64,000 nt of DNA from a virus (Duplodnaviria > Caudoviricetes), in IMG/VR virus record IMGVR_UViG_2708742418_000007, positions 1,077 to 65,076 of that record; one strand, written 5' to 3'. Positions 1,357 through 42,961 of this stretch are shown here, piece after piece. The notes beneath the pieces were generated by a model. That model saw only the letters and a list, made by a program, of their open reading frames with translations. It was not told where the DNA came from and ran no database searches. The translations under genes and the position numbers were made by a program. The first letter of the stretch is position 1, and each line of letters begins with the position of its first letter.

Positions 1357-1379
1357 GCGTCACCCTTTCCTTTGAAGAA

Positions 1380-1413: not shown

Positions 1414-1502
1414 CCAACCGCATCAAGTGCGGCCGATTTGCCCCCGCTCACCAACGAGGGCCTTGGATAGGGGCGCAACAGGAAACGCCCCCATCACATT
1501 CC

Positions 1503-2393: not shown

Positions 2394-2446
2394 TTTGCCG
2401 CCCTGAGTGTCAATTGCTGACACCATGCGGCACATCAAGGTGGGAG

Positions 2447-2536: not shown

Positions 2537-2598
2537 GCCGGGGGGCCGGAAATCGCCTGATCCCAATCCGCCTGTAGGCGGTCCTTCCTGGTCGGCAC
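2535..2598 (-). ncRNA. Putative structured small RNA, copy of the element at 26837..26900
   Basis: 56/64 gapless identity to the reverse complement of 26837-26900, with a compensatory change in the closing stem; strand inferred from the prophage copy. Confidence 0.6.
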
Positions 2599-2607
2599 CC
2601 CGCCAAA

Positions 2608-3111
2608 TTAACGCGGCATGTATCGATCGACCAGCGCGAATATGGTCTCTGCAATCATTGTCTCATCTTCCTTGGAAATTCCGAGATAGGGACGAGCGGG
2701 AATTGTCACGCTATCGGTTTTCACAAAATGGTCGCCAATTCTGAAAGCAAGGTGCGAAGCGATTTTCGGCTTGATCTCGCCACCAAACTGATGAATGGCA
2801 GCGTAAACCTTGTTAGGCCCAACCCGAACTTCGCTGGAAGATGCCCTGCTATTGATGCTGTCCCGAAGCAGGCCGCTTTCAACCAGGGTGTATGTTTTTG
2901 TCTTCGTCTCGGCATATTGCTTATTGAGTGCGGCCCAGGCGTTGCCGTCCGGATCGGTGCCGCTGATAAAACGCTGATGGGTTGAACCCACCAGCCCCGT
3001 GCCGATTGCTTTCATAACCGGCGTAGTATTGCGCATCACGCCTTCAAGTTGGCGGAACGCCGCTTGTACCTCCTTGTCCTGCACTGTCACCGAAAATGGC
3101 GCACCGGTCAT
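2608..3111 (-). CDS. Phage virion morphogenesis protein (Mu gpG-like), paralogue of 26283..26795
   Basis: LVESGLLRDSI, YAAIHQFG, IPARPYLGIS motifs. Confidence 0.92.
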   Translation of the reverse strand: MTGAPFSVTVQDKEVQAAFRQLEGVMRNTTPVMKAIGTGLVGSTHQRFISGTDPDGNAWAALNKQYAETKTKTYTLVESGLLRDSINSRASSSEVRVGPNKVYAAIHQFGGEIKPKIASHLAFRIGDHFVKTDSVTIPARPYLGISKEDETMIAETIFALVDRYMPR

Positions 3112-3128
3112 AGACTGATCTCCAAGCC

Positions 3129-3383
3129 TCAATTCGCAAGCGGTGGCTTCTCATGCCCGGCAAGGATCTGTTCCTCCGCCACCATGAGGCCAGACATTAT
3201 GTCGATCTTCGCTTTCGTAAAGCCCTCTGCCCGCTGTGGCGAAAGCTCGCCGCGCTCGATAAGCTTGTCGTCGGCAGCGCAATGCATTTGCAGCGCTTGT
3301 CCGCGCACCTGTACCAGGAAGACAAGCTGTTCCTTCGAAAGCGTGTTCAGGTCGATCTGCGTGTCCAAAACGATATCCCTCAA
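3129..3383 (-). CDS. Hypothetical protein
   Basis: Co-oriented ORF filling the gap between parB and gpG. Confidence 0.55.
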   Translation of the reverse strand: MRDIVLDTQIDLNTLSKEQLVFLVQVRGQALQMHCAADDKLIERGELSPQRAEGFTKAKIDIMSGLMVAEEQILAGHEKPPLAN

Positions 3384-3436
3384 ATTCGCCCGTCAGGCGC
3401 GTTTTTTAGTCCAGATGATGTGCGGCACCCAACAGG

Positions 3437-4825
3437 TCATAAAAATCCGCCTATGGGCTTTGAGGCGGCTTCGAAATCAATTTCCGAGCCGTAAACCTCA
3501 TCAATCTCATCAAGCATCTTCGCAACTTCCCAGGCAATTCTATCCAGATCTTCGTCTCGTTGCAGTTCAGAAATCACATACCGCTGCTGATCCTCGTCCA
3601 GACGGTGAATGTTTCGAACGATCCACCCTTCGGCGCGGTAACGCACCAGCAGCAGCGTTGCCAGTTCCTTCAGAACGCCCGACTTTTCGAGTGCCTTGAT
3701 TTTCTTTGTAACCCGCTTCTCCTCGGGAGACCGGGGCTTAGGCCCCGGCTTCGACTTACGGGATCTCTTCGCGTTTTCCTTTGCCACCTCAGCCTTGTGA
3801 CTTACCTTGAGGCTCCGCTCCATGTTGTTGATCGCATTGAGCGTGTAGTGGAGCTGCCGTGTCGTTTCTGCCTGTTTCCAGAGGCGCTGGTCTTCGACGC
3901 TGATGTGTTCGCGCAATGCCATGGGATCGGCGATCGCTGCCCACAGCTTCGACCGGTTGCGAGGCGACCTAACGCCGACCGTCACACTGAGGTGCGGCAT
4001 CACGTCAATCGGCTTCGGCATCGCGCCGATCTTCTCCAGCGCCGCAGCCCTGCGGTCTCGCGGCATGGCCTCCCAGGCGTCGCGAAACTGCTTCTCCCGC
4101 CAGTCTCCGGTTTCCATGCGGCCGGTCGGCTCGCGACCGGTTTCAGGGTCAGGCTCGCGCAGGACGGCTTCAAGGTCAGGGTTCTCGCGCAGTTTTGCGG
4201 CTATACGGTTCTGCTTTTCAGGTCCGAGCTTCGCCAGCTTGATCAAGCGTGTCTGATCATCGGCATAATCTGTGCCACGGATAGCGTCTCTCAGCGATTT
4301 TTCCAGAAGACGGATCGAGTAACGCCTACGACCCTCACGTTCGGAAATGCCGAATTTATCAAGTAAGTCTTTGTAGAAGCTTGGTTTTTTTGATAAATCT
4401 AAATCGGCATTAATCCGGCCATCTTGGCCGCTTTTCTTCCTGCGGCCCGGTTCTATCTTTCCAAAAGTTGCTTCCCACCATTCGCGATAGGCCGAAAAGT
4501 GTTCCGCCGCTTCGAGAGCGTTCAACTCCGACTGCGACAGATTGTCAGCGATGGCCAAACTAGAGGCTTCATCCTTGGTTCGCAAGAGCGCATTGATCGT
4601 GGGCCATCCCAGCTTTTGCGCTGCCCAAAGCCTCCTTGCGCCGTAAATCAGCGTAAACTGCTTCCTGTCTCCACGTGCGGTGCTCTTGTAAACGGCAATC
4701 GGCGTCTTCTGTCCGTCGCTCTCCATCTGGCGCATCAGAAGCATTGCAGCAGCCTCGTTATGCGGCCGGACATATCCATCCGGCACATGCACCAGATCAA
4801 CGGGTATCGCGATCACTTCAGCCAA
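3437..4825 (-). CDS. ParB-like protein with C-terminal extension, paralogue of 43770..44633
   Basis: YGARRLWA (GxxRxxA motif); WEATFGKIEPGR vs WEAKFGKVEPGR and RGTDYADDQ vs RGTPAADNQ in the prophage copy. Confidence 0.88.
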   Translation of the reverse strand: MAEVIAIPVDLVHVPDGYVRPHNEAAAMLLMRQMESDGQKTPIAVYKSTARGDRKQFTLIYGARRLWAAQKLGWPTINALLRTKDEASSLAIADNLSQSELNALEAAEHFSAYREWWEATFGKIEPGRRKKSGQDGRINADLDLSKKPSFYKDLLDKFGISEREGRRRYSIRLLEKSLRDAIRGTDYADDQTRLIKLAKLGPEKQNRIAAKLRENPDLEAVLREPDPETGREPTGRMETGDWREKQFRDAWEAMPRDRRAAALEKIGAMPKPIDVMPHLSVTVGVRSPRNRSKLWAAIADPMALREHISVEDQRLWKQAETTRQLHYTLNAINNMERSLKVSHKAEVAKENAKRSRKSKPGPKPRSPEEKRVTKKIKALEKSGVLKELATLLLVRYRAEGWIVRNIHRLDEDQQRYVISELQRDEDLDRIAWEVAKMLDEIDEVYGSEIDFEAASKPIGGFL

Positions 4826-4888
4826 ACCGCGTCATCTCCTGTGGTGGAAACTCCGCTAAGATGATTGCGGTCATCGGTTCCGATCCGG

Positions 4889-5083
4889 TCATTCTTCGCC
4901 TTTCGGAAACTCTCCGGACGCGGTGAGGAAGCCCTGTTCTTTTAGGTACTGGATCAAGAGCCCGTCCATGAGCGCAGCCAAAGACACACCAGCGTGCGCA
5001 GCAGCTCGTTCACCAGCCTTCTTTACTGTCGGCCTCATCCGCACTGCAAAGGCTTCTGATTTTCGCTCGTCCTCAAGCGCCAT
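4889..5083 (-). CDS. Ribbon-helix-helix-type small regulator
   Basis: KSEAFAVRMRPTVKKAGERAAAHAGVSLAALMDGLLIQYL fits the RHH beta-strand plus two helices pattern. Confidence 0.65.
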   Translation of the reverse strand: MALEDERKSEAFAVRMRPTVKKAGERAAAHAGVSLAALMDGLLIQYLKEQGFLTASGEFPKGEE

Positions 5084-5142
5084 TGTATAACACACCGTTG
5101 ACAAATCTTCGTTGTTAGATATGTATAACGGTGTTGAATACA
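5084..5142. promoter_or_regulatory. Divergent promoter/operator region
   Basis: Imperfect inverted repeat TGTATAACACACCGTT / AACGGTGTTGAATACA overlapping TTGACA (5098) and TATAAC (5124). Confidence 0.55.
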
Positions 5143-5212
5143 AAACTCAAGCGGCCCAAGCGGGTGTTACCAGCACCAGCGAGGGCCTAACCAAACGGCA
5201 AAGGAGGCCCTT

Positions 5213-5566
5213 ATGCCACAGGCTGCTTTCGCAGATAGCACAACTGCGCCCAAAGGTCAGCAGACCTTCCAACTCGATTTCGATGTGTTCATCGACACAT
5301 TGCGAGAACTGGAGGCTATCTGCTTCATGCTGGAAGGCGCGTTGAGCCAGACAGGCTTCATTCATCAGGATATCGTGGCCGGTATCCACGGTCTTATCCG
5401 TGGCCGCGTGGAGGATCTTCGCGTGATCTACGGTGACGCCATGGCGGATCGCGAGGCTTTTCAGCGGCTGTTGGCGATCCGGCAGACACGGTCAAAGCTG
5501 GATCAGGCCGGCTCGGTGCAGGATGCGAAACAGCCCTCCGCCTCCAAACAGGAGGCAAGCGCATGA
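5213..5566 (+). CDS. Hypothetical protein
   Basis: GGAGG RBS; ATGA overlap with the next ORF. Confidence 0.75.
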   Translation: MPQAAFADSTTAPKGQQTFQLDFDVFIDTLRELEAICFMLEGALSQTGFIHQDIVAGIHGLIRGRVEDLRVIYGDAMADREAFQRLLAIRQTRSKLDQAGSVQDAKQPSASKQEASA

Positions 5567-5880
5567 CTGCCACTCTGGACAAGAAGGAAATCGATCAGCT
5601 TCGCGAAGATCTGGAAGAGGGGATGGCGATGCTGAAAACCCTGGCCGAATGCTCCTGCCTCGCCCTCGATCATGGCGATGTTGACAGCAATTTCACCTTT
5701 GGTCTTTCCAGGCTGTTCGATGCCGCATTCCAGCGCCTGGACGGCACCGAAGCCGCCCTTCGCAAGATAAGCGGCGGCGCGGAGAAAATGGATCGCGCAC
5801 AGGCGGAGGAATGGGCGAGGGACAAGCTCACCTTCCTCCAGGACGAGCAGCGTGGCGCTGTCCAGTCGAAGAAAAAATAG
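5563..5880 (+). CDS. Hypothetical helical protein
   Basis: GGAGG RBS, coupled start, followed by a terminator. Confidence 0.75.
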   Translation: MTATLDKKEIDQLREDLEEGMAMLKTLAECSCLALDHGDVDSNFTFGLSRLFDAAFQRLDGTEAALRKISGGAEKMDRAQAEEWARDKLTFLQDEQRGAVQSKKK

Positions 5881-5900
5881 CATTTGTGTCCGGTATGGTC

Positions 5901-5932
5901 AGGGGCGCTGCGATCCGTCGCGGCGCCCTTTT
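5901..5932 (+). terminator. Rho-independent terminator
   Basis: GGGCGCTGCGA-tccg-TCGCGGCGCCC followed by TTTT. Confidence 0.7.
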
Positions 5933-6324
5933 CCATGCCAGTTTTCCGCTGCGCTTTCGTCATTCACTGCCGGTGATTTTTGAACAACCTTTGAGGCCTC
6001 ATCAACACCCGTTCGAAGGCCTCTGTCATGCGTTCCCTTGCCCGTCTTTCCCGCATCAAATACCCCGCCTCCAATGTCGTTCCGGCTTGGCTTCTTTGCT
6101 ACTGGAGGTTGCTCCGTTCGGATGCCGCCAGAGACTATGCGAAGGCGTGGATCATGCTGCCCCAGCGCTTGCCGCCGGGCGTCCCATGCCCCACAGTTGA
6201 TCAGATGGCTACTGCTCTTGTGGATCATAATTTGGTGGACCGTTAGCGCTCGACGGTGGAAAGTTCTTGCATGCTGCATTCACGCTCTATCCGACTGAAA
6301 ACACATGGTTTTACGCTGAAAAAG

Positions 6325-6710
6325 CGAACATGCCAGCGACTAGCAAGTTAGAATTGGATTTTTCTCGATTTTTTGCACGGTTTGAAGACTTTGCGGCGGA
6401 AATCCTCAAAGTCTGAAAAAGCCCGGAAATGCGGGCTTTTTTGTCCTTCCGTCTGGCCTTTAAAAGGCTTTTCAAAAGCCTCTCAAAGAGACTTTTAAAA
6501 ATGGCCCGAAGCCGCGTTTTTTGCGCAAATTTCGAGGCTTTTTTGTCAAAATGGCTTTTCCGCACAGCGCCGAAAACGGTCAAAAATATCCAGCAAAAAC
6601 ACATGCTTGGACGGAAAAAGACGCGAAATGACGAGAAATGACGGTTTTCCGGAAATCTATGTCAAACAACATCCGGAATTTTGACAGCCAAAACCGAAAA
6701 ATGGAATTTC
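6325..6710. repeat. Diverged direct copy of the prophage repressor-proximal end region (47485..47885)
   Basis: Collinear blocks at ~41.16-kb offset: GAATTGGATTTT, GCGGAAATCCTCAAA, AAAAAGCCCGG..CGGGCTTT, TGTCAAA, AATGACGG(G)TTTTCCGGA, TCCGGAATTTTGACA..AAAACCG. Confidence 0.85.
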
Positions 6711-6915
6711 CGGAAAGCCTGTCAAAATGTGCGTTTTGAGCGGCGTTCAAACGTCTTTCCAATACTTTTCAAAGCCGCTTCAAATTTACCGATTTCTCAA
6801 ACACCGCGCTAACCAAAAGCGGTCTTTGGTTTTGACGGTATCATCGGTCTCGGGCACCGTGAGGCTGAGATGCTGGCCCATCTCCAATCCCTTCAATGTG
6901 AAATGGAGAAGCAAG

Positions 6916-7764
6916 ATGGAGATCCCATCTTTTGGGCCAGCCGGACCTACCTTTGAGCAGGCAGCAGAGAGTTATCTCGCTCATGGCGGCGAGGCTCGGT
7001 ACATTCCGCCAATCGTCGCCTATTTTGCCGGCCGGCCTCTGACATCGATCCACCCGTTCGATATCCGCAAAATGGCGGAAAGCATTTACCCCGCGCACAG
7101 CAATGCCACACGCAACAGGCAGGCCATCACACCGGCAAGAGCTGTCATGATGCACGGCTATGACCGTGGGTGGTGCCCGCTCATTCGCGTGCGGCGTTTC
7201 AAGCAAGACCGACCGGCTCGGCCGAAACCAGCGTCGCCGGTCTGGCTGCATGCCTTCGCCAGGCAGTGCGACAAGGATGGCTTGCCCCATGTGGCGGCCG
7301 TAGTGCTCTTCATGGCTCAAAGCGGCGCGCGGATCAGCGAGGCGATTGCGCTGCGGTGGTCCGAGGTAGACCTGAATGCTCGCACGGCCCTGTTGCTCAA
7401 GACAAAGACGTCGACCAACTCCGTGCGGTTTTTGACAGACGAGGTTGCTGCACGGCTCCGGGACCTGCGCGGCACTGCCAAAGGCAGCGACAGGGTTTTC
7501 CGATACACCTCGCGCCACAGCGTCAATGAGCGCATCCGGGCCGTCTGTGGTCGGGCCGGCATCCCGCACAAGCCGCCGCATACATGCGGGCGACACACCT
7601 TTGCCACGCGCGCGATCGAGCTTGGAATGGATGTGCGCACCACAATGGCGGCAGGCGACTGGCGATCCTCGTCAGTCTTTCTGGAGACCTATGTGCATCC
7701 ACGGCTGAATGCCGGACGCCTGGTCGCCGATCGCTTTGCTATGGATGCTTTCGACGAAATCTGA
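6916..7764 (+). CDS. Tyrosine recombinase/integrase lacking an arm-binding domain
   Basis: GARISEA (R), KTKT (K), HTCGRH, GDW, ETY catalytic pattern; GGAG RBS before ATG 6916. Confidence 0.9.
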   Translation: MEIPSFGPAGPTFEQAAESYLAHGGEARYIPPIVAYFAGRPLTSIHPFDIRKMAESIYPAHSNATRNRQAITPARAVMMHGYDRGWCPLIRVRRFKQDRPARPKPASPVWLHAFARQCDKDGLPHVAAVVLFMAQSGARISEAIALRWSEVDLNARTALLLKTKTSTNSVRFLTDEVAARLRDLRGTAKGSDRVFRYTSRHSVNERIRAVCGRAGIPHKPPHTCGRHTFATRAIELGMDVRTTMAAGDWRSSSVFLETYVHPRLNAGRLVADRFAMDAFDEI

Positions 7765-7833
7765 TGCGGTTTTCAAAGAGCTGCCGGCAGACGCATTTTC
7801 GGGCTGCCGGCACGTACAGATGATGATGGGGCG

Positions 7834-9795
7834 TCACGACACCCGCAGATTGCCTGCCAGCACGTAGTCGCGGATCACCTTGCCGATTTCGATATGCGCC
7901 CATGTGCTGTCATGAGCGGCATCAATCGCAGCAACAAACGTGATTTCGTAGGCATCGCCCACGGCTGGCGTTGCAGACCAGCCAGCATCGACGTTGATGG
8001 TGCCATCCGCTCGCGTATAAAAGACAACACCGGCCGCTGTGTTCGCAGCGGCTCCGGTCGTAAACCGGATGGAATAGCCCTTGTACAGGTCAGCCACCCA
8101 GCCAGCCTTGCTGCTGTCAATGAATTCATACTTGGCAGTGACACCCGTCAGAGTACCGGTAATGCTTGGCCGTCCGGCCGGCACGATGACATAGCCACCA
8201 TCCAATGTCTTGACATTGGAGGCATTGACCTCGACAGCACTGCATGTCTCGATCACGCCGGTCAGATCGAAATATCCGCTCTCCTGACGAAATCCGCTCG
8301 GTCCCGTATCGCGCAGCCATGCATTGATTTGCAGACGGGTGGCCTCGGTCGAGACTTTTGTCTGACCGGCTACAGTGGTCCATGCGTCGGTGGTGTTTGT
8401 CGACGGCGGCAGCGTCATCTGATGCCACTTGATGCCGCGCGGCGCATACCAGCTAACCGCCTTTAGCAGATTGGCCCGGAACGTCGCGAAGCCCAGCCCT
8501 TTGTCGTTGTTGCCGTAGTTGGAAATGATGTTGTTAGCCAACTCGGCAAGCCGGTTCCGGGTGCGATCGCGCACAGAGCTGGCGAGCGAATTGACGAAAT
8601 CATCCAGCTTTTCACCGCCGAGACCCATGGGGATATAGCCGCACAGCGGTGTCGTCTGGTCCTGCATTTTGAGGTCCAGCCGGTTCGTGATGCCACGAAC
8701 GATGAAGCCTCCCTCACCGTAGCCGACACCTCCATCTCCGGTGCCAGCCCCCTTGCTGTCCGCAACGATGGCAACAGACGCACACGGACGCTTGGGGCGG
8801 CCAAGAATTGTGAGCGGGGTATAGATGTTATTGGGCGATGCCGACACATCTAGCGTGGCGCCTGGGATAGTGCGGTCGCCGAGACTGGCGACCTCCCCGA
8901 CATCGCGGATACCTCCGCCCGATGCACGCCCTGCTGCGCCGCCGATCAGCCGCGTGCGAGCGCCAGCGGTCTGCTCGCGGATAATCGTTTTCGGCTGCCC
9001 GATTGCGGCAAGCCCCTCCTGGCACGCCTTGGCATAATTTGCCTGTACGCCAGTTGTCGCATTGCGCGATCCGATGCAAACGCGGTACGCAATGGCCCCG
9101 GGATAAGCCGCTGGCGACGTGACGGTGATGGAGCCGGTGCTAGCTCCAGCCGGGATAGTCGCCACCGATCCTGCCGACAGAAGGCTCTCGCTTCCGTCTG
9201 CAAAAATGTAGCAGACTGAAATCAGATAGCTGGCACCCGCCGCCAGCGCCCCACCCGTACCAGAGGCCGATACAGCAGGCGCATCCGGCGCTGGGGCGGC
9301 AAACGTGTCGCTGGCTGTTTTGGTATAGAACCGCTCTCCTTTGGAGAGAGGCAGGAAAACCGGGTCAGAAAAAAGCACGCAACCGGGATCGACACGTGCA
9401 CGCCGCGACCCGTTGAAAGCGACCGGCACCGTGTGGCCGTCATTGGCAGTCTCAGTGCTGCCAAGCTTGTCCATCGCAGCGGTCACATTGATGGGGCTAT
9501 AACCAGCCTCCATGATGCCGGGAGACGCCGTGCCGTAATTGGCATACACGAGGATGAAGTTGCTGCAGTCAACCGCAAGCGTGTGCTTCTTGCGATATGA
9601 TACCTGATTGAGCTGAGTGTTTTGCGGAGAGTTGTTGCTGCTGAGGGCAGTCCCTCCCGACGCGACAGGCTGATATCCAGCCTGTCGAAGCGCATCGAGT
9701 GAAGCCACCCCGCTGGCGGCCAGCGCCTCGACGATATCCGCAACTTCCGCAGCGTCATATTGAGCGTCTTCCGGATTTATTTCGATCTTTGCCAT
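7834..9795 (-). CDS. Tail spike/fibre-associated protein with SGNH esterase-like domain
   Basis: VADS, YGNND and DAAH SGNH blocks; start MAKIEINP at 9795. Confidence 0.7.
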   Translation of the reverse strand: MAKIEINPEDAQYDAAEVADIVEALAASGVASLDALRQAGYQPVASGGTALSSNNSPQNTQLNQVSYRKKHTLAVDCSNFILVYANYGTASPGIMEAGYSPINVTAAMDKLGSTETANDGHTVPVAFNGSRRARVDPGCVLFSDPVFLPLSKGERFYTKTASDTFAAPAPDAPAVSASGTGGALAAGASYLISVCYIFADGSESLLSAGSVATIPAGASTGSITVTSPAAYPGAIAYRVCIGSRNATTGVQANYAKACQEGLAAIGQPKTIIREQTAGARTRLIGGAAGRASGGGIRDVGEVASLGDRTIPGATLDVSASPNNIYTPLTILGRPKRPCASVAIVADSKGAGTGDGGVGYGEGGFIVRGITNRLDLKMQDQTTPLCGYIPMGLGGEKLDDFVNSLASSVRDRTRNRLAELANNIISNYGNNDKGLGFATFRANLLKAVSWYAPRGIKWHQMTLPPSTNTTDAWTTVAGQTKVSTEATRLQINAWLRDTGPSGFRQESGYFDLTGVIETCSAVEVNASNVKTLDGGYVIVPAGRPSITGTLTGVTAKYEFIDSSKAGWVADLYKGYSIRFTTGAAANTAAGVVFYTRADGTINVDAGWSATPAVGDAYEITFVAAIDAAHDSTWAHIEIGKVIRDYVLAGNLRVS

Positions 9796-13844: not shown

Positions 13845-13910
13845 AGCTATCGCGCGCGCGCGTCATAGATCATGCCCAGCAGCATGGGCATGCCCGCATG
13901 GGAGGGCAGC
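13845..13910 (-). promoter_or_regulatory. Late promoter with activator boxes
   Basis: CATGCCC-agcagcat-GGGCATG (13871-13892), an overlapping second box (13889-13910), 20-nt spacer to ATAGCT. Confidence 0.7.
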
Positions 13911-19061: not shown

Positions 19062-19111
19062 AGCTATCGCGCGCGCGCGAAAACGATCATGCCCACCGAA
19101 GTGGGCATGAT
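19062..19111 (-). promoter_or_regulatory. Late promoter with activator box upstream of TMP
   Basis: ATCATGCCCAC-cgaa-GTGGGCATGAT; same (CG)n spacer and ATAGCT as the 13845 promoter. Confidence 0.7.
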
Positions 19112-23863: not shown

Positions 23864-24757
23864 TCAGGCGAGGTACGGAACCTTCACCACCTGCACCATG
23901 CGAGCCATCACGTTGGTCTCGCCACCATTGGTCAGTTCCGCCTCGACCAGCTTGCGGGCGGTGATTTCGAGCGACGGCGGCACCAGCAGCTTCTTGGCAG
24001 AGATATTGAGCACCTCGCCGGAGCGGCGGCGTAGCGTGCTCATGGCCGTCAGGGCAGCCGACAGGTTCGCCTCGTTGAGCGTTGCCTTGGACTTGTAGGC
24101 CGTCTGCCAGAGACCCAAACCCGCGTTGGAGCGGCCATCGACGCCCCAGATGAACTTGCCCTGGTAGAAGACATTCGGATCGTCGGGGCTCTGCAGCGGC
24201 GTCAGGGTGAAGGGCCGGCGCGTCTGGTAGACCAGCGGCTTCATCGCCTGCGCGTCATCGACCAGATACCAGGCCGGGCCGGCGCCATCGGTGAAGTTGG
24301 CGACCGAGATCAGGTTGCCCTGTTCGTTGTAGCCCGGATGGTCCGTATCGAAGAAATACTGGCCGTCATAGCATTTCAGCGTCTCGCCGGTCTTGAACAG
24401 CGGCCAGCAGAGCAGGTCCGGGAACTCCGCCGCATCCTGTCCCATCTGTCCGGCGACCGGGGTAAAGATGCCGAGCTGGTCATCCTCGATCTGGTCACGC
24501 TTGATGGAGATCGTCTTTTCGAAGGTGCGGTTGCGGATGACATAGGTCTGTGCGCCAAGATCATGGACGACGCGATCGCCCAGCCATTCGCGGAACCCCG
24601 GCAGATCGTCGAGGCGAGGATATTCGTTCATGGCCGTGGTCGAGGGCACCGTCATGGCGACGATGCCATAAAGCGGCGAGATCGACGCAAAGCGCTGGTT
24701 AAAAGAGGTCGAAAGCCCGGTGTAGATGGCGCGCAGCGTGCTGCTATTGATATCCAT
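23864..24757 (-). CDS. Major head subunit gpT
   Basis: FREWLGDR, CYDGQYFFDTDHP, WGVDGRSNAGLGLWQ. Confidence 0.95.
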   Translation of the reverse strand: MDINSSTLRAIYTGLSTSFNQRFASISPLYGIVAMTVPSTTAMNEYPRLDDLPGFREWLGDRVVHDLGAQTYVIRNRTFEKTISIKRDQIEDDQLGIFTPVAGQMGQDAAEFPDLLCWPLFKTGETLKCYDGQYFFDTDHPGYNEQGNLISVANFTDGAGPAWYLVDDAQAMKPLVYQTRRPFTLTPLQSPDDPNVFYQGKFIWGVDGRSNAGLGLWQTAYKSKATLNEANLSAALTAMSTLRRRSGEVLNISAKKLLVPPSLEITARKLVEAELTNGGETNVMARMVQVVKVPYLA

Positions 24758-25163: not shown

Positions 25164-26201
25164 TCAGAGATCCTTCCCGTGCAGTGCCTTCGACCGGTCG
25201 GCAAAGGTCTTTTCGTCGACGCCCATCATCGCGGCGACCTTGCGGTCTTCCTCGGTCAGCGACGGCGCGCCATTCTCCGGCGGCTGCCGACCGCCGAGGC
25301 CGCCGGCATTCAGCGACGGCATCAGCTTGATCTCGGCCTCGACCTCTTCGGGCGCCCGCATGTGGCGGCTGATCATGTGATCGCGCAGCGCCGGCACGAT
25401 CTTGCCGGCCTTGATCGCGGCTTCGACCGTCGTAACGGCCTTATCCTTCGCCGTCTGGTTCACCAGCGTGGTGAGCTGCGACTGCAGCGCCGTCACGGTC
25501 GCCTGCAGCTGGGCATTCTCCGCCTCGGTCGGCGACGCCTTGCCGCGCGACTGCAGCGCGGTGACGAGCGCATCGCCCGTCACGTCTGCGGCAAGACCAG
25601 CCGCAGCCCGCACGCGGCCCATCAAGGCCGTCTGCGCCTGGTGTTCGGCATGGGTGGTCGAGACAGCATGGAGGATTTCGGCCTCGGTCGCGGTCTCGGG
25701 AAGGCCAAGCGCCTTCCGGAGCTGTTCGAGCATGTCGCTCTCCCTTTGATGATGAAGTGAAGTGAGAAATTCGAGGTTGGGACTATTGGTCAGCGCGACG
25801 CGCAAAACCTTGGCGATCCGGTACGGCTTTGAAGTGGAATGCTGAAAGACCGGCGAGAGGTAGCCATAGGCCTTGCCCTGCACGAGGGCCGCACCCTCGT
25901 CGGTCCACTCGACACGTCCCCACAGACCGTCTTCACGTGCTTGCAGTTCCACGATCCAGCCGCGCGCCGGGGACGGGAGGCCGGCCTTGCCGGCAAGGTC
26001 GATCGAGTGGTTCTCATCGACAGCAAGCTTGCGGCCATCCGCGGCGAAGGCGCTGATCAGCGCATTCATGTCCGGCGCCGCATAAGGCCCGCGACCGTCA
26101 ACACCGGAAAATTCCGTGGCCGGCAGAAGGTGCAGCCAGTCCGGCAGGGTGCCGGCGGCGGATTGCAAGGCGATGATCAGGGCGGCGATGTTCTTTGGCA
26201 T
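25164..26201 (-). CDS. Mu gpI protease with C-terminal scaffold (Z)
   Basis: VDENH, PARGWI, VEWT, YLSPVF, ALTNSP; internal RBS and ATG at 25733. Confidence 0.92.
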   Translation of the reverse strand: MPKNIAALIIALQSAAGTLPDWLHLLPATEFSGVDGRGPYAAPDMNALISAFAADGRKLAVDENHSIDLAGKAGLPSPARGWIVELQAREDGLWGRVEWTDEGAALVQGKAYGYLSPVFQHSTSKPYRIAKVLRVALTNSPNLEFLTSLHHQRESDMLEQLRKALGLPETATEAEILHAVSTTHAEHQAQTALMGRVRAAAGLAADVTGDALVTALQSRGKASPTEAENAQLQATVTALQSQLTTLVNQTAKDKAVTTVEAAIKAGKIVPALRDHMISRHMRAPEEVEAEIKLMPSLNAGGLGGRQPPENGAPSLTEEDRKVAAMMGVDEKTFADRSKALHGKDL

Positions 26202-26208
26202 GGCCGAA

Positions 26209-26256
26209 AACTGCCATGCACGAGACAATCGTATCATGCCCACCACGGTGGGCGGC
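26209..26256 (-). promoter_or_regulatory. Late promoter (Mu PI equivalent) with activator box
   Basis: CATGCCC-accacggt-GGGCGGC at 26235-26256. Confidence 0.6.
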
Positions 26257-26282
26257 AAATCAGGGCAGGGGTAACGAGGGGA

Positions 26283-26795
26283 TCAGGGGCGGTTCGGCGT
26301 ATAACGCTCGACGAAGGAAAAGACGATCTCGGCGATCGATGTCTCGTCGTCGGCAGATATACCGAGGAAGGGACGGGCCGGCAAGGTGACGCTGTCGGCG
26401 ATCACCGGCGAGCCGTTAATCTTGAAAAACAGGTGGCTGGCGGAGACCGGCTTGATCTCCGCGCCGAGCTGGTGCGGGCGGGCATAGATGACATTGGTGC
26501 CGACCACGACGACATCCTGTCCTGCCTGGGCATTGATGCTGTCACGCAGACGCCCGCTTTCGGTGAGGATGCGGCTGTTGCGCTTGCCCTTGGCATATTC
26601 GGTGTTGAGGGCGTGCCAGGCATTGCCCTGCGGATCGGTCTGGGTCACGAACCGCATATGCGTCGAGGCGACAAGCTCATTGCCGATCGCGGCCATGATC
26701 GGCCGCGTATTGCCGAACATCCGGACAGTCAGCGCGCGGAACGCGTCCTGGACGGCGCGGTCTTCGATCGTGACGCTGATGGAAACGCCGCTCAT
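26283..26795 (-). CDS. Virion morphogenesis protein gpG
   Basis: LTESGRLRDSI, VGTNVIYARPHQLG, LPARPFLGIS. Confidence 0.92.
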   Translation of the reverse strand: MSGVSISVTIEDRAVQDAFRALTVRMFGNTRPIMAAIGNELVASTHMRFVTQTDPQGNAWHALNTEYAKGKRNSRILTESGRLRDSINAQAGQDVVVVGTNVIYARPHQLGAEIKPVSASHLFFKINGSPVIADSVTLPARPFLGISADDETSIAEIVFSFVERYTPNRP

Positions 26796-26797
26796 GT

Positions 26798-26826
26798 TTG
26801 CCTTTCACCGTGTTCGGGCTTATACT
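26798..26826 (+). promoter_or_regulatory. Sigma70-type promoter antisense to the late operon
   Basis: TTGCCT-N17-TATACT, predicting +1 near 26833. Confidence 0.65.
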
Positions 26827-26832
26827 CTTGAC

Positions 26833-26904
26833 TGACGCGCCGACCAGGAAGGACTGCCTTCAGGCGGCTTGGGATCAAGCGTTTTCCGGCTCCCCGGCGC
26901 GTCA
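26833..26904 (+). ncRNA. Putative structured small RNA convergent on the muF 3' end
   Basis: Perfect 10-bp terminal stem TGACGCGCCG/CGGCGCGTCA, internal hairpin, own promoter, second copy at 2535-2598. Confidence 0.65.
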
Positions 26905-26911
26905 TTTCCAT

Positions 26912-28018
26912 TCAATATTTCCACTCGATGCCGAATTTTTTGACGATATCGCGTCGCTCTGTCCGCCGTAGCGACGAAAGCCATATCTCCTGCCGATCGC
27001 CCTTTTTCACGACCTTCAGGGCGGCATGATAAAGCTTGCCGTCATAGTCGCCGACAAACGCCCAGCGGCCCTGCTTGTCCTTCATCAGCCTGCCATGTTC
27101 GGCAAGCCGCTTTGGCAGGACGCCATAGGCATCCGGCGTGGCGATCGTATGCTTGACGTGGCTGCGGATGGTATCTGCCGACAGGCGGATCTCCGTTCCG
27201 ACGGAGACCTCCAGCGTTTTTGCCGTCACCTTGTCAGCCGTAGCGACCGGCGTCCACGCGCCATCGGGCCATTTGCCTTTGAGAGAGGATCGCACGAAGG
27301 CCGCGATATTCGCCTCGTCGGCCGATACGGCTTTCGGTCCAGGTGCTGTTTTCTGCAGCCAGGCCATGCCGGGATTGTAGGCGAAGCTCGGATCGACGCC
27401 GAGCGGCTGGTCTGTGCCGAGCTGATCGAGATCCGGTGCGCGATCCGGCCCGCTCTTGCCCATGCGGCGCAATCTGGCGCCGGAGATCGGGATCACGAAA
27501 CAGCCGCAGCCAAAACCGTTCGGTGGATAGGCGACCGTCCAGAACGGGTCGTCGGCCGGATAGATCTTCTTGTCCCAGGCCTTGTGCTGCAGGCGCGGGT
27601 GCAGGGAGCCCGAATGATTGTACTGCCAGTAGGGATGCGTGGCGAGCGTATCCGGCTCGGTCATCTGGGCGTAGCGCCCGGCGGCATAGGCCGTGCGCAG
27701 GTTGGTTTCGAAGATCGTGCGCGTGCGCCAGCCACGCTCGCCCTTATAGGACCAGCCGTGCGTCTTCACGATCCGGTCGAAATCCTTGCGGAAATCTTCA
27801 AGCGTGGTGCCCTGTTCCAGCGCCTTCGCAATCGCCGCCTTGAAATCGTCCACGATGGCAACGCTGTTGGCGCCCGCCACCATGAACATCTTGGAATGGG
27901 CTGCGTCCCAGACATCGCGCCAGCTTTTCGTGGGGGTAGAGACTTTGTCGCGGAAGAATGCTATAGCCTCATTGAACGGCAGGTCGAGCGCGTCTCCCGC
28001 CGCACCGTCCAGAGCCAT
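26912..28018 (-). CDS. MuF minor head protein with C-terminal PBECR-like nuclease-fold domain
   Basis: TIFETNLRTAYAAGR, HPRLQH, PPNGFGCGC; ~130-aa extension IRLSADTIRSH..YHAALKV..IWLSSLRR (domain family is inference). Confidence 0.85.
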   Translation of the reverse strand: MALDGAAGDALDLPFNEAIAFFRDKVSTPTKSWRDVWDAAHSKMFMVAGANSVAIVDDFKAAIAKALEQGTTLEDFRKDFDRIVKTHGWSYKGERGWRTRTIFETNLRTAYAAGRYAQMTEPDTLATHPYWQYNHSGSLHPRLQHKAWDKKIYPADDPFWTVAYPPNGFGCGCFVIPISGARLRRMGKSGPDRAPDLDQLGTDQPLGVDPSFAYNPGMAWLQKTAPGPKAVSADEANIAAFVRSSLKGKWPDGAWTPVATADKVTAKTLEVSVGTEIRLSADTIRSHVKHTIATPDAYGVLPKRLAEHGRLMKDKQGRWAFVGDYDGKLYHAALKVVKKGDRQEIWLSSLRRTERRDIVKKFGIEWKY

Positions 28019-28137
28019 CCGAGCAATCATCCCCGAGATCGATTTCAAAGCCGCTTCAAAGCCCGTGGACGCGCGCCTTGGGTCTGTCGGCTGCGACGTT
28101 ACCTCCAGGCAGGCAAAGCGCACCAGCGGCCCGCCAT

Positions 28138-29727
28138 TCATGACCGCCCCTTGATGTCGTCGAGCAACGCTGCCTGTCCGGCCAGATGCGCCAGCGCCAT
28201 GCCCCGCGCCATGGCCTCGGCGAGATCGTCCGGTGACAGCTCCAGTCGCGCCAGCCGATCAGCCGCCTCGCGCAGATCCGTCGCCTGCATCAGGACTTTG
28301 CGCACCTCGTCGAGCATGCCGTCCAGGGCGTCGGCCGCATCACGCTCCAGGCGCGTGGTGAGCACATCGACCGGATCGACAGGCGCTGTCGCATGGGCCG
28401 AGGTGAACAGGCGATCGAGCGAGGCCTGCACGCTGCGCGTCTGCTGGCCGGGTTGGGGCTGTTGCTCCGGCTGCTGCATCCGGCCGCCGACAAGCTCGGC
28501 GTCCGGCTGCGGCGTGGGAATGCCCATCCGGTCGCGCAGAAAACTTTGCTCCGCCGTCAGGCCGTGCTTGGCGAGCTTGTCGAAGGCTGTCGCAAAATCG
28601 AGCAGCGGCACCTCGTCGGGCCGGCCGACCATCAAGGTCGGATACACATCCTGCGGCCCGAAATTGAAGTCGATGATGAGCGGCACGAGCTGCTGCTGCA
28701 GGGTGTCCGTGACCATGCCGGCATCGTCGGTCTCGATATCCACCTGGACGAGGCGATGCTCCTGGCTGACGGCGTGACCGCCCGAGACGGCATCCGTCGT
28801 CGTCGTCTGCCCGAGCACCAGCTTGGAAACCTCCCGGTTTAACCAGTCAGCGCGCCGCTCGTACATGTCCGTCGAGCTGCTCTTCGAGCCCACCTCGTGA
28901 AACTCCACCAGCATCTCGCGCGGCACGATCGCCGCGCAGTCGCCGGCAATGCCGGACACTGCCCGCCAGAGAACATCCTTTTCGGCCTCGGTTGCGCCGC
29001 GACCATATTTGCCGATGCGGATCGGCTGGCCATAGTTCTGGCAGAAGATCGCCCAGTCCTTCACCGTGAAGCTCTTGAACATCCATGCCCAGAGCGCCAC
29101 GCGGGCAATGCCGCCCCGGATCGTGAGGCCAGATTTCGACTTGTGCCGATGCACGATGAACTTGTGTTCCGTCAGAGGCTGGCCGTTGATGCCATCGCGC
29201 AGCAGGACGGTCTCTCCATCGGCCCGATCGAAGGTGAACCACCGCTGCGGACGCCAGATCAACGCCTGAGGCAGCATGTCGCCGCCCTGGTATGTCCAGT
29301 CGATTTCCAGGATCGAAAGCCCCTTGCCGATCGCGTCCAGCATGTCGAACAGAGATGCGCGCAAGACGCGCTTGTTGACCCACTTCTGCAACAGGGCCGC
29401 ATGCTTCTTGTGTTCGGGAGCGTCCGATGCTGGCTTGACGGTGATCGGCAGCTGCGCAACGGATCGTTTGCGGGTCGCCATCACGGACAGGTAATGCGGA
29501 TCGCGTTCCTCGATATCCTCGGCCAGCTCGAAATAGGCCTCCGGCTCGCCATCGGCCGCAGCCCTGAGGATGCGCGCCAGGCGCTGCGGTGTCAGTCCGT
29601 CGGCCGGATGTCCAGATACGACCTGGCGCACGCCGCCCACCTGGGGCGTGGCGATCGCCTCCATCACGGGCTTTGGCACCTTGGTGGCTTCTGCCGCCTG
29701 CAGGCTCTTGCGCTTCTTCTTGCCCAT
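28138..29727 (-). CDS. Portal protein, Mu gp29 (DUF935)
   Basis: YGQPIRIGKY, SKLVLGQTTT. Confidence 0.93.
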   Translation of the reverse strand: MGKKKRKSLQAAEATKVPKPVMEAIATPQVGGVRQVVSGHPADGLTPQRLARILRAAADGEPEAYFELAEDIEERDPHYLSVMATRKRSVAQLPITVKPASDAPEHKKHAALLQKWVNKRVLRASLFDMLDAIGKGLSILEIDWTYQGGDMLPQALIWRPQRWFTFDRADGETVLLRDGINGQPLTEHKFIVHRHKSKSGLTIRGGIARVALWAWMFKSFTVKDWAIFCQNYGQPIRIGKYGRGATEAEKDVLWRAVSGIAGDCAAIVPREMLVEFHEVGSKSSSTDMYERRADWLNREVSKLVLGQTTTTDAVSGGHAVSQEHRLVQVDIETDDAGMVTDTLQQQLVPLIIDFNFGPQDVYPTLMVGRPDEVPLLDFATAFDKLAKHGLTAEQSFLRDRMGIPTPQPDAELVGGRMQQPEQQPQPGQQTRSVQASLDRLFTSAHATAPVDPVDVLTTRLERDAADALDGMLDEVRKVLMQATDLREAADRLARLELSPDDLAEAMARGMALAHLAGQAALLDDIKGRS

Positions 29728-39536: not shown

Positions 39537-39838
39537 GACCGGTCTCCTTTCGGACCGCGCCCGAAGCTGGGACGGATGATCTTGTCGTCATCCTTTTCGC
39601 GATGCATGCGGATGATTTCCGCCGAATGCTGGTCGACCAGCTCGGCGATGATCACCTTGCCCTGCCGTGCGGCCTCGGCCAGCCGGTGGATCTCCAGCTC
39701 CCGTTCCTGCAGCGCGACGAGCTGCGCCAGATGCGCCACGAAGCGGCCCGTTTCCCGCAGCTCGTCGATGGCGACGGGCCGGGGGCGGGAGAGGAAATCG
39801 GTCGCAATGGCCGATAGTTCTTTCGAGGCGATCAGCAT
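39533..39838 (-). CDS. Hypothetical protein
   Basis: TGATG overlap with the B gene. Confidence 0.65.
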   Translation of the reverse strand: MLIASKELSAIATDFLSRPRPVAIDELRETGRFVAHLAQLVALQERELEIHRLAEAARQGKVIIAELVDQHSAEIIRMHREKDDDKIIRPSFGRGPKGDRS

Positions 39839-40863
39839 CAGGCGATCTCCTCTACGTCGCGGTTCTGCCAGGCGGCTTTCACATGCGTGATGGAGAGCGG
39901 CTGGCCGCCTCCCTCCGCCGCCATGAAGGCCAGCTTCGCGGTCTTGTCGATCTGGCCAAGCGCACCACCCTTGAGGCCGATGCCGGTCAGGAACTTCACG
40001 CATTCCGGATCGGTGATACCCCAGGCCGCGATATAGGCCTGCAGGTCTTCCAGATAGGGCTTGGCGCGGTTGAGGCGCTTGCCGATGCGGCGCTTGAGCT
40101 GTGCATAGGAAGGGCCTCCGGCGCTGCGGCCGAACCGGGTATAGACCTCGTCATTGCCCACCAGCGCGATGCCGCACTGATAGATGTCCATGAAGTGGCG
40201 CAGCTGATTGATCGCGTCATCGACGAGGTTCTGCGCTTCGTCCACGATCAGCAGCGAGCCGCCGCCAATGCGGCCAAGCTTGGCGCCGATGGCGCGGGTG
40301 AGCCGTGCCGGGTTGTTTTCCTTGACCTCAAGTTCCGCCGCAAGCTCCACGAGCATGCCGTGCACCGTCTTGGTGTGCGGGGTAATCGTGGCGTGGTAGA
40401 CATGCGGACGGGTGGCCGCATAGGTGCGGCAGGCCATGGTCTTGCCCATGCCGGCGCCGACGGTGATCATCACCATATCCGCCGTGGTCTGTGCCCAGGA
40501 CAGCGTGTCAAAGATCTCGCGCGAAAGGCGGGTATTGATGAAGAGCGGCGATTGGCGGATGTTGGAGACCACATCGGATGCCTCGAAAAAGGCATGCAGC
40601 CACTGCTCGGCCATCCGGTTATAGGTTTCCAGCCGGCCCAGATAGGCCCCGGAAAACCACTGGCTGAAGGTGGATACCTCCATGCCCATGCGCCGCCCGA
40701 CCTCGGATTTGCCAAAGCCGTTTTCGCTGGCGATCGCCGCAACCTTTCCCGTCAGCTGCCGCCAGATCTCGACGTCGTCGGCGGAATGCTTGGCGATAAA
40801 CTTCTCGCTGGGCTCCGGCCGATCCCATCCGCTGGCCGGGCTTGTGATGATATGCTGGTTCAT
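39838..40863 (-). CDS. MuB-like transposition AAA+ ATPase
   Basis: N-terminal HTH, GAGMGKT, LLIVDEAQNL, ALVGN. Confidence 0.95.
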   Translation of the reverse strand: MNQHIITSPASGWDRPEPSEKFIAKHSADDVEIWRQLTGKVAAIASENGFGKSEVGRRMGMEVSTFSQWFSGAYLGRLETYNRMAEQWLHAFFEASDVVSNIRQSPLFINTRLSREIFDTLSWAQTTADMVMITVGAGMGKTMACRTYAATRPHVYHATITPHTKTVHGMLVELAAELEVKENNPARLTRAIGAKLGRIGGGSLLIVDEAQNLVDDAINQLRHFMDIYQCGIALVGNDEVYTRFGRSAGGPSYAQLKRRIGKRLNRAKPYLEDLQAYIAAWGITDPECVKFLTGIGLKGGALGQIDKTAKLAFMAAEGGGQPLSITHVKAAWQNRDVEEIA

Positions 40864-40978: not shown

Positions 40979-42961
40979 TCACGCGCCGGAGCCATTCCCC
41001 TTCGGGAATTCCAGGATCGAGGCGCCGCCGCTGAGGCGGGCGAGCCCTCGTGAAAAGGCGTCTTCGAATTCTTCGGGACTGAGGCTCTGTTCGGCCTTCA
41101 CCGCCAGATTGCCGCTCTGGCTGGGCACCAGCCGCGTCACCACCGGCCGCATCGGTTCCGGTGCGCTGGCGGGCGCGTCGCCACGGCTGTAGATCTCGGC
41201 AAGCTGATCGGGCGAGAACACCACTTCGGCATCGCGCAGTTCCCGCACCTTCTTCTGATAATCGGACCGGCGTCGGGCGTGCTGGCGTGCTGCGGCCTGG
41301 TCGTTATGGCCGGTGTCGTCGATGCACTCGGCCCGGCAGATCAGGCGATTGTCGAGGTCGTAGACGTGGATCGGATCGTGCAGCCGGTCCGGATCGAACC
41401 TGAGCGTCACCTTGTCGCCCGCATGCTGGTTGAGCAGCGGAGACCAGTAGCGGTTGCCCTGGAAGTGAACCTCGCCGGACCCCTTCTGCAGGGTGACGAT
41501 GTCGGAGGCGAGCAGCCAGAGCGCCTTCTGTGCAGCGGTCGGCCAGCGTACGATTGTCGTCGGCTCGGCCAGGGAGGCGGCAAAGGTCTCGTCGAAGCTG
41601 CGGCCGGCGCAGGCCTTGGCTTTCCGCCCTGCCTGGGCATTGTGCTCGGCGATGCGCTCTGCAACATGCCGCTGGAAATCGGCCAGCGGAATGGCGCGGC
41701 TGGCATAGTTCTCCGGCTTGGCGTCCGGCTTGTTGCCAGTATAGGCGCCGGCCACGGCGGGATGACGCGAGATCACGTCCGTCAGGTCGCGCCAGGCGCG
41801 CTCGATCGGCTTGGACTGCCCCGCATAGGGCGTGGTCCATGTCACCTCGATCCCGAGCGTCGTCAGAAGCCCCATCGGCTCTTCTTCGCGCACCTTGAAC
41901 CGGAAGCGCTTTTTCATCTGGCCGGTGATCCACTTGGAGGCGAAAGCCCGGCCGTTATCGAGATAGATGCCATCCGGGATGCCATAGGTCTCGACCATGT
42001 CGCCGATCGTCAGCCGCACCACTTCCCAGGTCTCGGCGTCGGACAGCCGATGCGCGATGATCTTGCCGCTGAAAAGGTCCTGGATGCCCACGAGGTACAT
42101 GCGCACCGGCTTGTTCGACCAGGGCACCCGCACGAAGACATCCAGCTTATGGCCGTCCATGTTGACGAGTTGCATGGCGTGCAGGTGCAACCGGCTGCGG
42201 CGCTGGGCGGGATAAAGCCCCTTGGCCTTGTCCTTGCCTTCGCGGCAAAGCACCTGCACGGACTTCGGAACCTTGGCGTCAAAATGCCGGCGCAGTGTCC
42301 GCTCGGAAGGGATCGGTGCCCATCCTTCGCGCTTTGCGGTTTTCTCCATGCGGCGGTAGCAGGCGGAGAAGCTCGGCTTTTCCGGGCGCAGGAAGTCGCT
42401 TTTCAGAATGTCCCAGGCCATGGGATGGCAGAGCGTCTCTTCCGGAACGACACCATTGGCCGATCCTGTCGAAGGCGCGAGTGCAGCCAGCCAGTCATCA
42501 GGGTCAAGCCCGTGCACAAGCTGGCGCCATTCGTAATAGGCGCTCTTGGCAACACCCGCCTCGTGCGTGGCAACGGCGATGGCTGAGGTGCGATTGACAC
42601 CGGTGCGGCGCACCAGATCCTCGACACGGCGCAGCACGCCGAGGCGCTTTTCACAGAGCGCTTTATAGGCCTTCGAAAGCTGGTTGAACCGGTTCCAGAG
42701 CGCGTTCTTGCGAGCGATCAGCGCTTTCGGCGTCTCATTCAGCGATGATGCCTTATCGGCCAATTCCAGCTGCAGACGCGCGGCTTCGGGCAGCAGCGAC
42801 ACATGGTATTCGTAGCCGCCGCCGCGTCCGGCCCGCTTGCGTGCGAGATCCGTGGCGCGCCAGCCGTTTTCGGCAACAAGATACTCAATGCCTTTACGCG
42901 TGTGCGGCAAGTCAGGCAGCTTGGCCTTTTCAAGTTCCGCAGATGTAAACCACTCCTTCAT
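40979..42961 (-). CDS. MuA-like DDE transposase
   Basis: KEWFT..GRGGGYEYH Mu DNA-binding domain; NMDGH, YLDNG and SKPIER (DDE). Confidence 0.96.
   Translation of the reverse strand: MKEWFTSAELEKAKLPDLPHTRKGIEYLVAENGWRATDLARKRAGRGGGYEYHVSLLPEAARLQLELADKASSLNETPKALIARKNALWNRFNQLSKAYKALCEKRLGVLRRVEDLVRRTGVNRTSAIAVATHEAGVAKSAYYEWRQLVHGLDPDDWLAALAPSTGSANGVVPEETLCHPMAWDILKSDFLRPEKPSFSACYRRMEKTAKREGWAPIPSERTLRRHFDAKVPKSVQVLCREGKDKAKGLYPAQRRSRLHLHAMQLVNMDGHKLDVFVRVPWSNKPVRMYLVGIQDLFSGKIIAHRLSDAETWEVVRLTIGDMVETYGIPDGIYLDNGRAFASKWITGQMKKRFRFKVREEEPMGLLTTLGIEVTWTTPYAGQSKPIERAWRDLTDVISRHPAVAGAYTGNKPDAKPENYASRAIPLADFQRHVAERIAEHNAQAGRKAKACAGRSFDETFAASLAEPTTIVRWPTAAQKALWLLASDIVTLQKGSGEVHFQGNRYWSPLLNQHAGDKVTLRFDPDRLHDPIHVYDLDNRLICRAECIDDTGHNDQAAARQHARRRSDYQKKVRELRDAEVVFSPDQLAEIYSRGDAPASAPEPMRPVVTRLVPSQSGNLAVKAEQSLSPEEFEDAFSRGLARLSGGASILEFPKGNGSGA

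Follow-up and report, generated by a model that had tools for sequence, protein, structure and literature searches.

The locus considered here raises the question of what a small, conserved structure does between two late head genes of a phage, on the strand opposite to both, and whether it is functionally tied to the protein whose gene ends beside it. The locus lies in the window, by which we mean the whole stretch of 64,000 nucleotides taken from the IMG/VR provirus record IMGVR_UViG_2708742418_000007, which holds a Mu-like transposable prophage of Rhizobiaceae. In this prophage the gene of the minor head protein MuF (26912-28141, minus strand, 409 aa; Pfam Phage_Mu_F, PF04233, at residues 99-217 with E 6.6e-14; phrog_220 with E 1.6e-86) is separated from the virion morphogenesis gene gpG (26283-26795, minus strand; Pfam Phage_tail_S, E 1.5e-34) by a gap of 116 nt (26796-26911), which is occupied by an RNA element. 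A first-pass annotation, made from the letters of the window alone, had proposed that this element is a promoter-driven small RNA and that it forms a module with a toxin-like domain at the C-terminal end of MuF. Judged from sequence comparison, the element is a conserved structured RNA family, previously undescribed. The function that we favour for it, although at somewhat less than an even chance, is that of a trans-acting immunity partner of the virion-borne MuF domain, which resembles the barnase/EndoU/colicin/RelE-like (BECR) fold in a structure model.

The RNA element and its promoter

The predicted RNA is 72 nt long (26833-26904, plus strand; covariance-model match of 89.7 bits, with covariation) and would fold into a four-way junction. 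It is closed by stem P1, a perfect 10-bp helix in which TGACGCGCCG (26833-26842) is paired to CGGCGCGTCA (26895-26904), and it encloses, on the same strand, hairpin 1 with an AGGAA loop (26844-26852), hairpin P2 (26854-26867) and the bulged hairpin P3 with a UUCCGG loop (26871-26894). Upstream of the unit, also on the plus strand, a -35-like hexamer TTGCCT (26798-26803) is followed after 17 nt by a -10-like hexamer TATACT (26821-26826), which lies 6-7 nt ahead of the closing stem. Both the promoter and the 72-nt unit starting at 26833 were found where the first-pass annotation had placed them, with the stem ending 7 nt from the stop codon of muF (26912-26914, minus strand); in most relatives the closing stem overlaps that codon. 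A promoter scan of 26000-28000 returned two promoter-like sites, compared with 0.5 expected from shuffled sequences.

The same arrangement is kept in the full-phage copies of the RNA. All of the 31 distinct upstream flanks carry TTGCnT, a spacer of exactly 17 nt and TAT(A/G/C)(T/A/C)(T/C), and the sequence of the spacer varies while the hexamers and their spacing are kept. The second hexamer ends in T in 29 of the 31 flanks and stops 5-9 nt before the closing stem in 29 of them; in the two other flanks (L223 and L225) it stands nearer to the stem than the lower limit of 4 nt set in the script. The -35 hexamer may be conserved for either of two reasons, since it is also the complement of the gpG Shine-Dalgarno region; for the conserved -10 hexamer no such second explanation applies. 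The rhizobial sigma-70 consensus is CTTGAC-N17-CTATAT, and the promoter of the RNA resembles it. We read the element as a gene for a cloverleaf-like RNA of ~70 nt with its own sigma-70-type promoter, opposite to the late head operon, and we infer its transcription from these features. A separate observation concerns the 17-nt spacer (26804-26820, and its counterparts in related loci), which by eye often contains a short GC dyad of variable sequence, for example GCCCGATCGGGC or GGCC-N5-GGCC; on the sense late mRNA this dyad would form a small hairpin just 5' of the gpG ribosome-binding site.

Copies of the RNA were gathered by pattern scans of viral contigs, species-representative genomes and metagenomes, with chance matches in the viral-contig scans separated from true copies by a script, and a covariance model was built from the copies. 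A stringent pattern matched 10 species among 185,579 species representatives (Rhizobium, Shinella, Agrobacterium and Brucella endophytica), and the metagenome scan gave 12 RNA copies. Altogether 38 distinct copies recur beyond the unit of the window, with covariation. When 25 distinct copies were aligned by MAFFT, with no structural guidance, the alignment yielded the closing stem and three hairpins, with 97.6% of the cells paired and 8 pairs showing double changes; such values were reached in 0 of 500 shuffles, and sliding the partners by 1-3 columns as a control left only 34-46% of pairing. On the covariance model the 38 distinct copies gave 97.8% paired cells and double changes in 12 of 23 pairs, this alignment being fitted to the structure and hence biased towards it; these 12 pairs supply the compensatory change that had been anticipated among homologues. 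The strand could be addressed by comparing G-U with A-C cells, which number 27 vs. 2 in the 38 copies and 16 vs. 3 in the 25 copies. This excess shows that the structure is selected on the strand antisense to muF and gpG, the same plus strand on which the RNA had been claimed to lie.

Two details of the fold are less certain. The third hairpin is better drawn with a GGG/CCC helix and an inner pair that alternates between GG/CC and AG/CU, and a larger variant of the RNA, described below, has an equivalent helix. The AGGAA loop of hairpin 1 is complementary to UUCC in the loop of hairpin 3; at one position of this contact G-C is replaced by A-U in 3 of the 38 sequences, other changes yielding G-U. 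An elbow like that of transfer RNA (tRNA) formed by this pairing is only suggestive.

The RNA did not correspond to any family with which it was compared. A search of the window against Rfam 15 at gathering scores gave no matches, C4, ribozymes, riboswitches and Mu-gpT-DE included, and at E up to 10 the region 26700-27000 gave a sole match, to S15-Halobacteria, with 19.1 bits against a gathering score of 49. ARAGORN found no tRNA or tmRNA gene in the window, and the likeness of the element to tRNA is one of four-way-junction topology only. When the 116-nt gap was compared by BLAST with 50,697 phage records, no match was returned.

It is highly improbable, in our view, that the element is no RNA gene at all and acts instead as DNA, as a dispersed repeat (REP/MITE), as an intercistronic stabiliser of mRNA or as a terminator of the late operon. 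Such readings draw on the position of the element between two late genes and on its reverse strand, which is foldable too (94.8% of cells pair). Opposed to them are the G-U excess on the antisense strand and the covariation of the outer stem pairs, whereas the terminal repeats of a transposon would be conserved. A dispersed repeat of the REP, MITE or RIME kind was rejected on copy number, with one copy in each of five whole genomes; an RNA match was present in 5 of 151 Rhizobiaceae genomes, one copy each. An intrinsic terminator was rejected as well, as no terminator-like site was scored at 26796-26911, and in the window the closing stem is followed by AUUUCC, not by a U run. The orientation of the RNA relative to its flanking genes is inverted in the satellite-like mini elements presented below, which excludes a common cis role in mRNA. 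Also discarded was a riboswitch or 5' leader: the same-strand genes that follow satellite and solitary copies (head genes, a gene for a DUF294/RNase_T protein, genes for proteins without Pfam match) are unrelated to each other, and in the full phages nothing coding follows.

The C-terminal domain of MuF and its association with the RNA

MuF extends for 192 aa past its Phage_Mu_F domain (after residue 217). The C-terminal 170 residues were modelled on a 37-sequence alignment with a mean predicted local distance difference test score (pLDDT) of 85.6, and the domain at residues 315-409 (26915-27199, minus strand) was superposed on BrnT (PDB 3u97) with Z 6.4 and a root-mean-square deviation of 2.8 over 75 of 77 residues (VIA-align). 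In an unbiased search of 48,161 chains, BrnT came first (6.4), followed by 7vd7_A (6.1), the tRNase CdiA-CT NC101 (5.7), colicin D (4.6) and RelE (4.3), with ParE, YoeB, HigB and other BECR-fold toxins also listed; all of these scores stay at Z < 8, the range in which the tool warns of a mere common arrangement, and the list is coherent despite their modest size. The model suggests that residues 315-409 probably adopt a BECR-like, BrnT/RelE-like fold, in agreement with what the first-pass annotation had expected of the structure.

One form of this domain goes together with the RNA. Among 45 MuF loci picked by protein similarity alone, all 27 that bear the RNA keep His328 (codon at 27158-27160, minus strand) and His331 (27149-27151, minus strand) in the motif RLSADTIRSH-x-KH, together with a basic SLRRT-like end. 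The 18 loci that lack the RNA have neither histidine, the first position being taken by Q, L or N, and in all 18 muF and gpG share an ATGA overlap or are separated by a gap of 10 nt or less. Over the last 95 residues, the net charge has a median of +7 in loci with the RNA vs. +1 in those without it. The complete records of RNA-less phages gave no RNA match anywhere (none in 5 of 5). Two loci (L231 and L232) were set aside, as their gaps of 75-99 nt gave no model match and hold what by eye looks like a diverged RNA-like element; the first histidine is kept in them. The objection that the RNA is not tied to the domain, since many domain-bearing relatives are without it, was rejected on these data: those relatives carry a different form of the domain, His-less and less basic.

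In a tree of MuF built without the C-terminal columns, which like the full-length tree was a quick one, the RNA-less rows are scattered, with 9 label changes, at least 5 of them on well-supported branches. The histidine follows the RNA in 5 of 5 independent pairs on well-supported branches and in 9 of 9 on all branches; with five pairs a sign test gives p 0.0625 at lowest. A separate sample of 401 Rhizobiaceae genomes contained 9 MuF loci, all of them consistent with the rule. Eight have a gap of 95-114 nt, a model match at the expected place and strand (5 strong, 3 weak with E 0.002-0.014) and the histidine; the ninth has a muF-gpG overlap, no RNA and no histidine. A blind test on one genome gave the same result, as 3 of 3 MuF genes without an adjacent RNA match proved to be His-less and to overlap gpG. 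In the N-terminal part, the RNA-less L204 group hardly differs from sisters that bear the RNA, and its domain has lineage-specific residues in common with them, yet the histidines and many basic residues are lost, and its junction is 10 nt instead of an overlap.

No immunity open reading frame follows muF, as had been noted from the sequence; the next gene is gpG. In the reading that we favour, the RNA and the adjacent BECR-fold MuF domain would form one accessory two-part module. Since MuF is carried in the virion, the domain would enter the cell together with the DNA; both this delivery and the toxicity of the domain we infer. The RNA would be made at once from its constitutive promoter, and continuously in lysogens, and would bind and neutralise the domain, perhaps as a tRNA-like pseudo-substrate.

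The same association could come about by linkage only, with the RNA being an autonomous regulatory, moron-like cassette whose function is unrelated to the MuF domain. One possibility is that it restrains the late head transcript in cis, as an antisense RNA at the muF-gpG junction, and that satellites turn their copy against a helper in trans; another is that it acts in trans on targets in the host or in phages. We consider this unlikely. It gains from the RNA having its own conserved promoter facing the late operon and a stem that reaches over the muF stop in most relatives, from the accessory nature of the RNA, which is absent from 18 of the 45 relatives, from its occurrence alone in other contexts, and from the trees, on which domain and RNA move as one block. 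A pure antisense RNA, however, needs no conserved loop or junction sequence, yet 31 columns are invariant in the 25 copies. Complementarity elsewhere in the window was not above that of shuffles: 34 complementary 10-mers were counted outside both copies, with a shuffle mean of 17.3 and a maximum of 34, a count that we took as no clear trans target. An unrelated function would also leave unexplained why the basic residues and both histidines are lost whenever the RNA is gone, the L204 group with its nearly identical N-terminal part included.

Several points weigh against the immunity reading, in addition to the modest fold scores and the few independent pairs given above. The N-terminal and full-length trees disagree, which shows that domain and RNA recombine as one block, and the RNA gene lies within ~10 nt of the last codon of the domain, so that linkage alone could yield a perfect association. 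The RNA-less domains share motifs such as ADVD, and the His-less forms perhaps had fewer independent origins than the trees suggest. There are also exceptions to the pattern: Gln stands in the His328 column of a remote family although an RNA, in its larger variant, is present there, at locus L234, with a gap of 33 nt, the second histidine is kept, and a genome with one satellite RNA copy carries only His-less MuF prophages. No canonical terminator follows the RNA in the gap at 26796-26911. A catalytic role of His328 and His331 is assumed. The likeness of the domain to toxins is confined to the fold: no Pfam toxin domain was found in the MuF C-terminus at E up to 10, the BrnT family PF04365 included, PDB sequence and profile searches with it gave nothing relevant and no BrnT, and a comparison with 1.84 billion representatives gave only 12 matches, none from a toxin family. 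The module proposed by the first-pass annotation is supported in part, by the promoter, the covariation, the strand, the modelled BECR-like fold and the co-occurrence; its putative toxin domain found no counterpart by sequence in a toxin family, and linkage offers another account of the co-occurrence.

Copies away from muF and the surroundings of the locus

A second copy of the RNA is present in the window within a mini element, at 2532-2601 on the minus strand (covariance-model match of 87.6 bits at 2528-2606). The reverse complement of 2535-2598 is identical to 26837-26900 at 56 of 64 positions, and GCGCCG/CGGCGC of the main copy is changed in a compensatory manner to GTGCCG/CGGCAC in the mini copy, both as had been claimed; a repeat search between the two copies gave 60 nt at 90%. 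The mini element was also correctly described as lacking muF, as tblastn with MuF on positions 1-8000 of the window found nothing. Its genes around the second copy (1503-4825, minus strand; Pfam and PHROG) are co-directional with the RNA and follow the order ParB-like (ParB_N-like gene, 3437-4825), gpG-like (2608-3132), RNA, gpT-like (major head protein gene, 1503-2438) and then a minor-tail or tape-measure-like gene.

Comparable elements were found in Rhizobium sp. SL86 and Brucella endophytica, where the RNA lies within an element of ~7 kb near lexA and comEC (L175:5629-11858 and L176:5745-12093). On one strand these lexA-side elements carry a MuA-like transposase, a MuB-like ATPase, GemA, the RNA, gpI (protease/scaffold) and gpT (major head protein), and no muF was found in either of them. 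They resemble satellites derived from Mu that produce a capsid shell of their own.

Still other copies lie elsewhere: 3 of the 12 metagenome copies have non-Mu surroundings. The solitary copy L268 is flanked by a SnoaL-like and a DUF294/RNase_T gene; TTGCCA-N17-TAGCGT lies upstream of it, and its closing stem is followed after 3 nt by AAUUUU, which no other copy has.

In more distant Mu-like phages a larger variant of ~105 nt, with a CTATAT-like -10, was found at the same place and on the same strand, in the muF-gpG gaps of L251, L256, L259, L241-L244, L250 and L258. It has a four-way junction with a longer first arm, and 15 of its 30 predicted pairs show double (compensatory) changes. Rfam gave no match at E 0.1 or below in 10 remote loci with this variant.

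On the immunity reading, the satellite-like mini-Mu elements keep the RNA in their early operon since they would be carried in MuF-containing capsids of a helper and reach the cell with no helper genome alongside, and the solitary copies outside phages would be orphan immunity genes. This reading covers the promoter, the joint keeping or loss of the RNA, the histidines and the basic charge, and the satellite and solitary copies. Its most specific form, in which a tRNA-shaped pseudo-substrate RNA neutralises a head-borne BECR RNase domain and serves as a swappable cassette, a satellite antidote and a bacterial orphan immunity copy, is put forward tentatively, as something rather doubtful.

The copies away from muF also bear on whether the RNA could be a partner of the MuF domain and not its antidote, that is, its substrate, cargo or cofactor. 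The domain might cut the RNA from longer transcripts, pack it into the head with the DNA, or need it for head assembly. Such a partner role shares the same co-occurrence, histidine and charge data, and the RNA is always beside head genes; as it has paired ends, no terminator and, in satellites, no clear promoter of its own, maturation from a longer transcript would fit. Satellites and solitary copies, however, keep the RNA without any muF, which fits less easily with a cofactor that would come from the helper phage anyway, and the caveat of linkage applies equally. We regard a partner role as quite unlikely.

A few observations were made in the genomes that carry these copies. The ~7-kb satellite-like elements sit in the same neighbourhood in two bacterial families. 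Rhizobium sp. SL86 (G003, loci L281-L286) has several His-less MuF genes, one with an internal TGA, one split in two and one reduced to a degraded remnant of 247 aa (P0099), which suggests that, besides the satellite-like element, the genome contains several Mu-like prophages that have decayed to different degrees. Downstream of the solitary RNA, at L268:1685-1775, there is a tandem 15-nt repeat of about five copies of GGTCGGCGCTGCATT. It falls inside a long GTG-started frame (1665-4025) whose product has RNase_T, CBS and DUF294 from residue 89 on, and it may be either the extreme 5' end of the DUF294/RNase_T gene or a stretch just upstream of its true start.

The prophage that carries the main copy was identified by Pfam matches, all on the minus strand. 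Besides muF and gpG it includes the Mu transposase (40979-42961), MuB (39838-40863), portal (28138-29727), gpI (25164-26258) and gpT (23864-24757) genes. Two pairs of direct repeats, 6327-6362/47487-47522 (81% identical) and 6672-6701/47846-47875 (90%), ~41.2 kb apart, flank this prophage plus a tyrosine integrase gene (6727-7764, plus strand). They are unexpected around a transposable phage and may represent a duplicated flank or an attachment-like sequence of another element. Inverted repeats ATGCCC-N8-GGGCAT occur at 2450-2469, 13872-13891 and 19089-19108 (3 vs. 0.17 expected by chance). All three are intergenic and precede the start of a late gene by 12 to 59 nt; the genes concerned are the gpT-like one of the mini element, one in the tail region and the tape-measure gene. 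Comparable CATGCCCGCC...GGCGGGCATG hairpins are found 3' of the RNA in the satellite elements. Such hairpins could be operators, processing sites or stabilising structures.

Comparison with known systems

The closest described setting is that of the MuF polymorphic toxins of temperate phages, in which a nuclease domain was assigned to more than half of 191 putative toxins (Jamet et al. 2017, PMC5576092). As far as the main text of that paper describes them, the protein studied here is similar in combining an N-terminal MuF domain with a C-terminal extension of > 100 aa that in its modelled fold is nuclease-toxin-like, and in the swapping of alternative C-terminal forms among close relatives (PMC5576092). 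That main text makes no mention of BrnT, RelE or DUF497, and its supplementary tables may list such domains. Unlike the MuF polymorphic toxins, the locus in the window has no protein immunity gene after muF, the sole extra being the RNA gene on the opposite strand, and its C-terminal domain matches no Pfam toxin family. In its modelled fold, MuF 315-409 is like the toxins of BrnT/BrnA and RelE-type type II systems (PDB 3u97; PMC11980606). The antitoxins of those systems are proteins, and here the domain is fused to a virion protein and has no sequence similarity to their toxins.

To our knowledge, polymorphic and BECR-fold toxins are neutralised by proteins, and among RNA antidotes only the type III repeat arrays are known to us to act by binding a protein toxin. 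Type III toxin-antitoxin systems (ToxIN and relatives) rely on a structured RNA that binds an endoribonuclease directly and thereby neutralises it, and by analogy this would be the mechanism proposed here. In the ToxI type the antitoxin is encoded upstream of the toxin gene and on its strand, as an array of tandem repeats that the toxin processes. The present RNA differs, and this too counts against the immunity reading, in being a single cloverleaf-like unit, downstream of muF, antisense to it and with its own promoter; the domain also differs, in that its predicted fold is BECR and not that of ToxN. A literature search limited to the main texts in one collection of papers returned no paper on RNA immunity for BECR or polymorphic toxins, and none was found on antisense RNA in the late region of Mu-like phages. 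If the immunity reading is true, a polymorphic-toxin-type domain would for the first time have an RNA as its immunity factor, and toxin and immunity would be paired in a new way. This would offer a testable function for the unexplained C-terminal extensions of MuF proteins and a reason why small Mu-derived satellites and some bacteria keep the RNA. Even if the coupling is one of linkage only, there remains a new, well-supported phage RNA family whose promoter is conserved, whose strand is defined and which has a larger form in more distant Mu-like phages.

Two kinds of regulatory RNA of phages are also comparable. The c4 RNA of P1/P7 and the CI RNA of P4 are phage and satellite immunity RNAs of about 77-79 nt, with paired ends, which are matured from longer transcripts and act by base pairing to phage mRNA. 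The present RNA is similarly small and compact, with paired ends and an origin in temperate phages or satellites, but unlike them it has no Rfam match (C4 included) and no clear target complementarity in the window. OOP RNA of lambda is a simple hairpin-terminated antisense RNA. The RNA described here would be like OOP in being short, in having its own promoter and in lying antisense to the 3' end of a neighbouring phage gene, and unlike OOP in its predicted four-way junction with conserved loops and in occurring also where it has no antisense partner.

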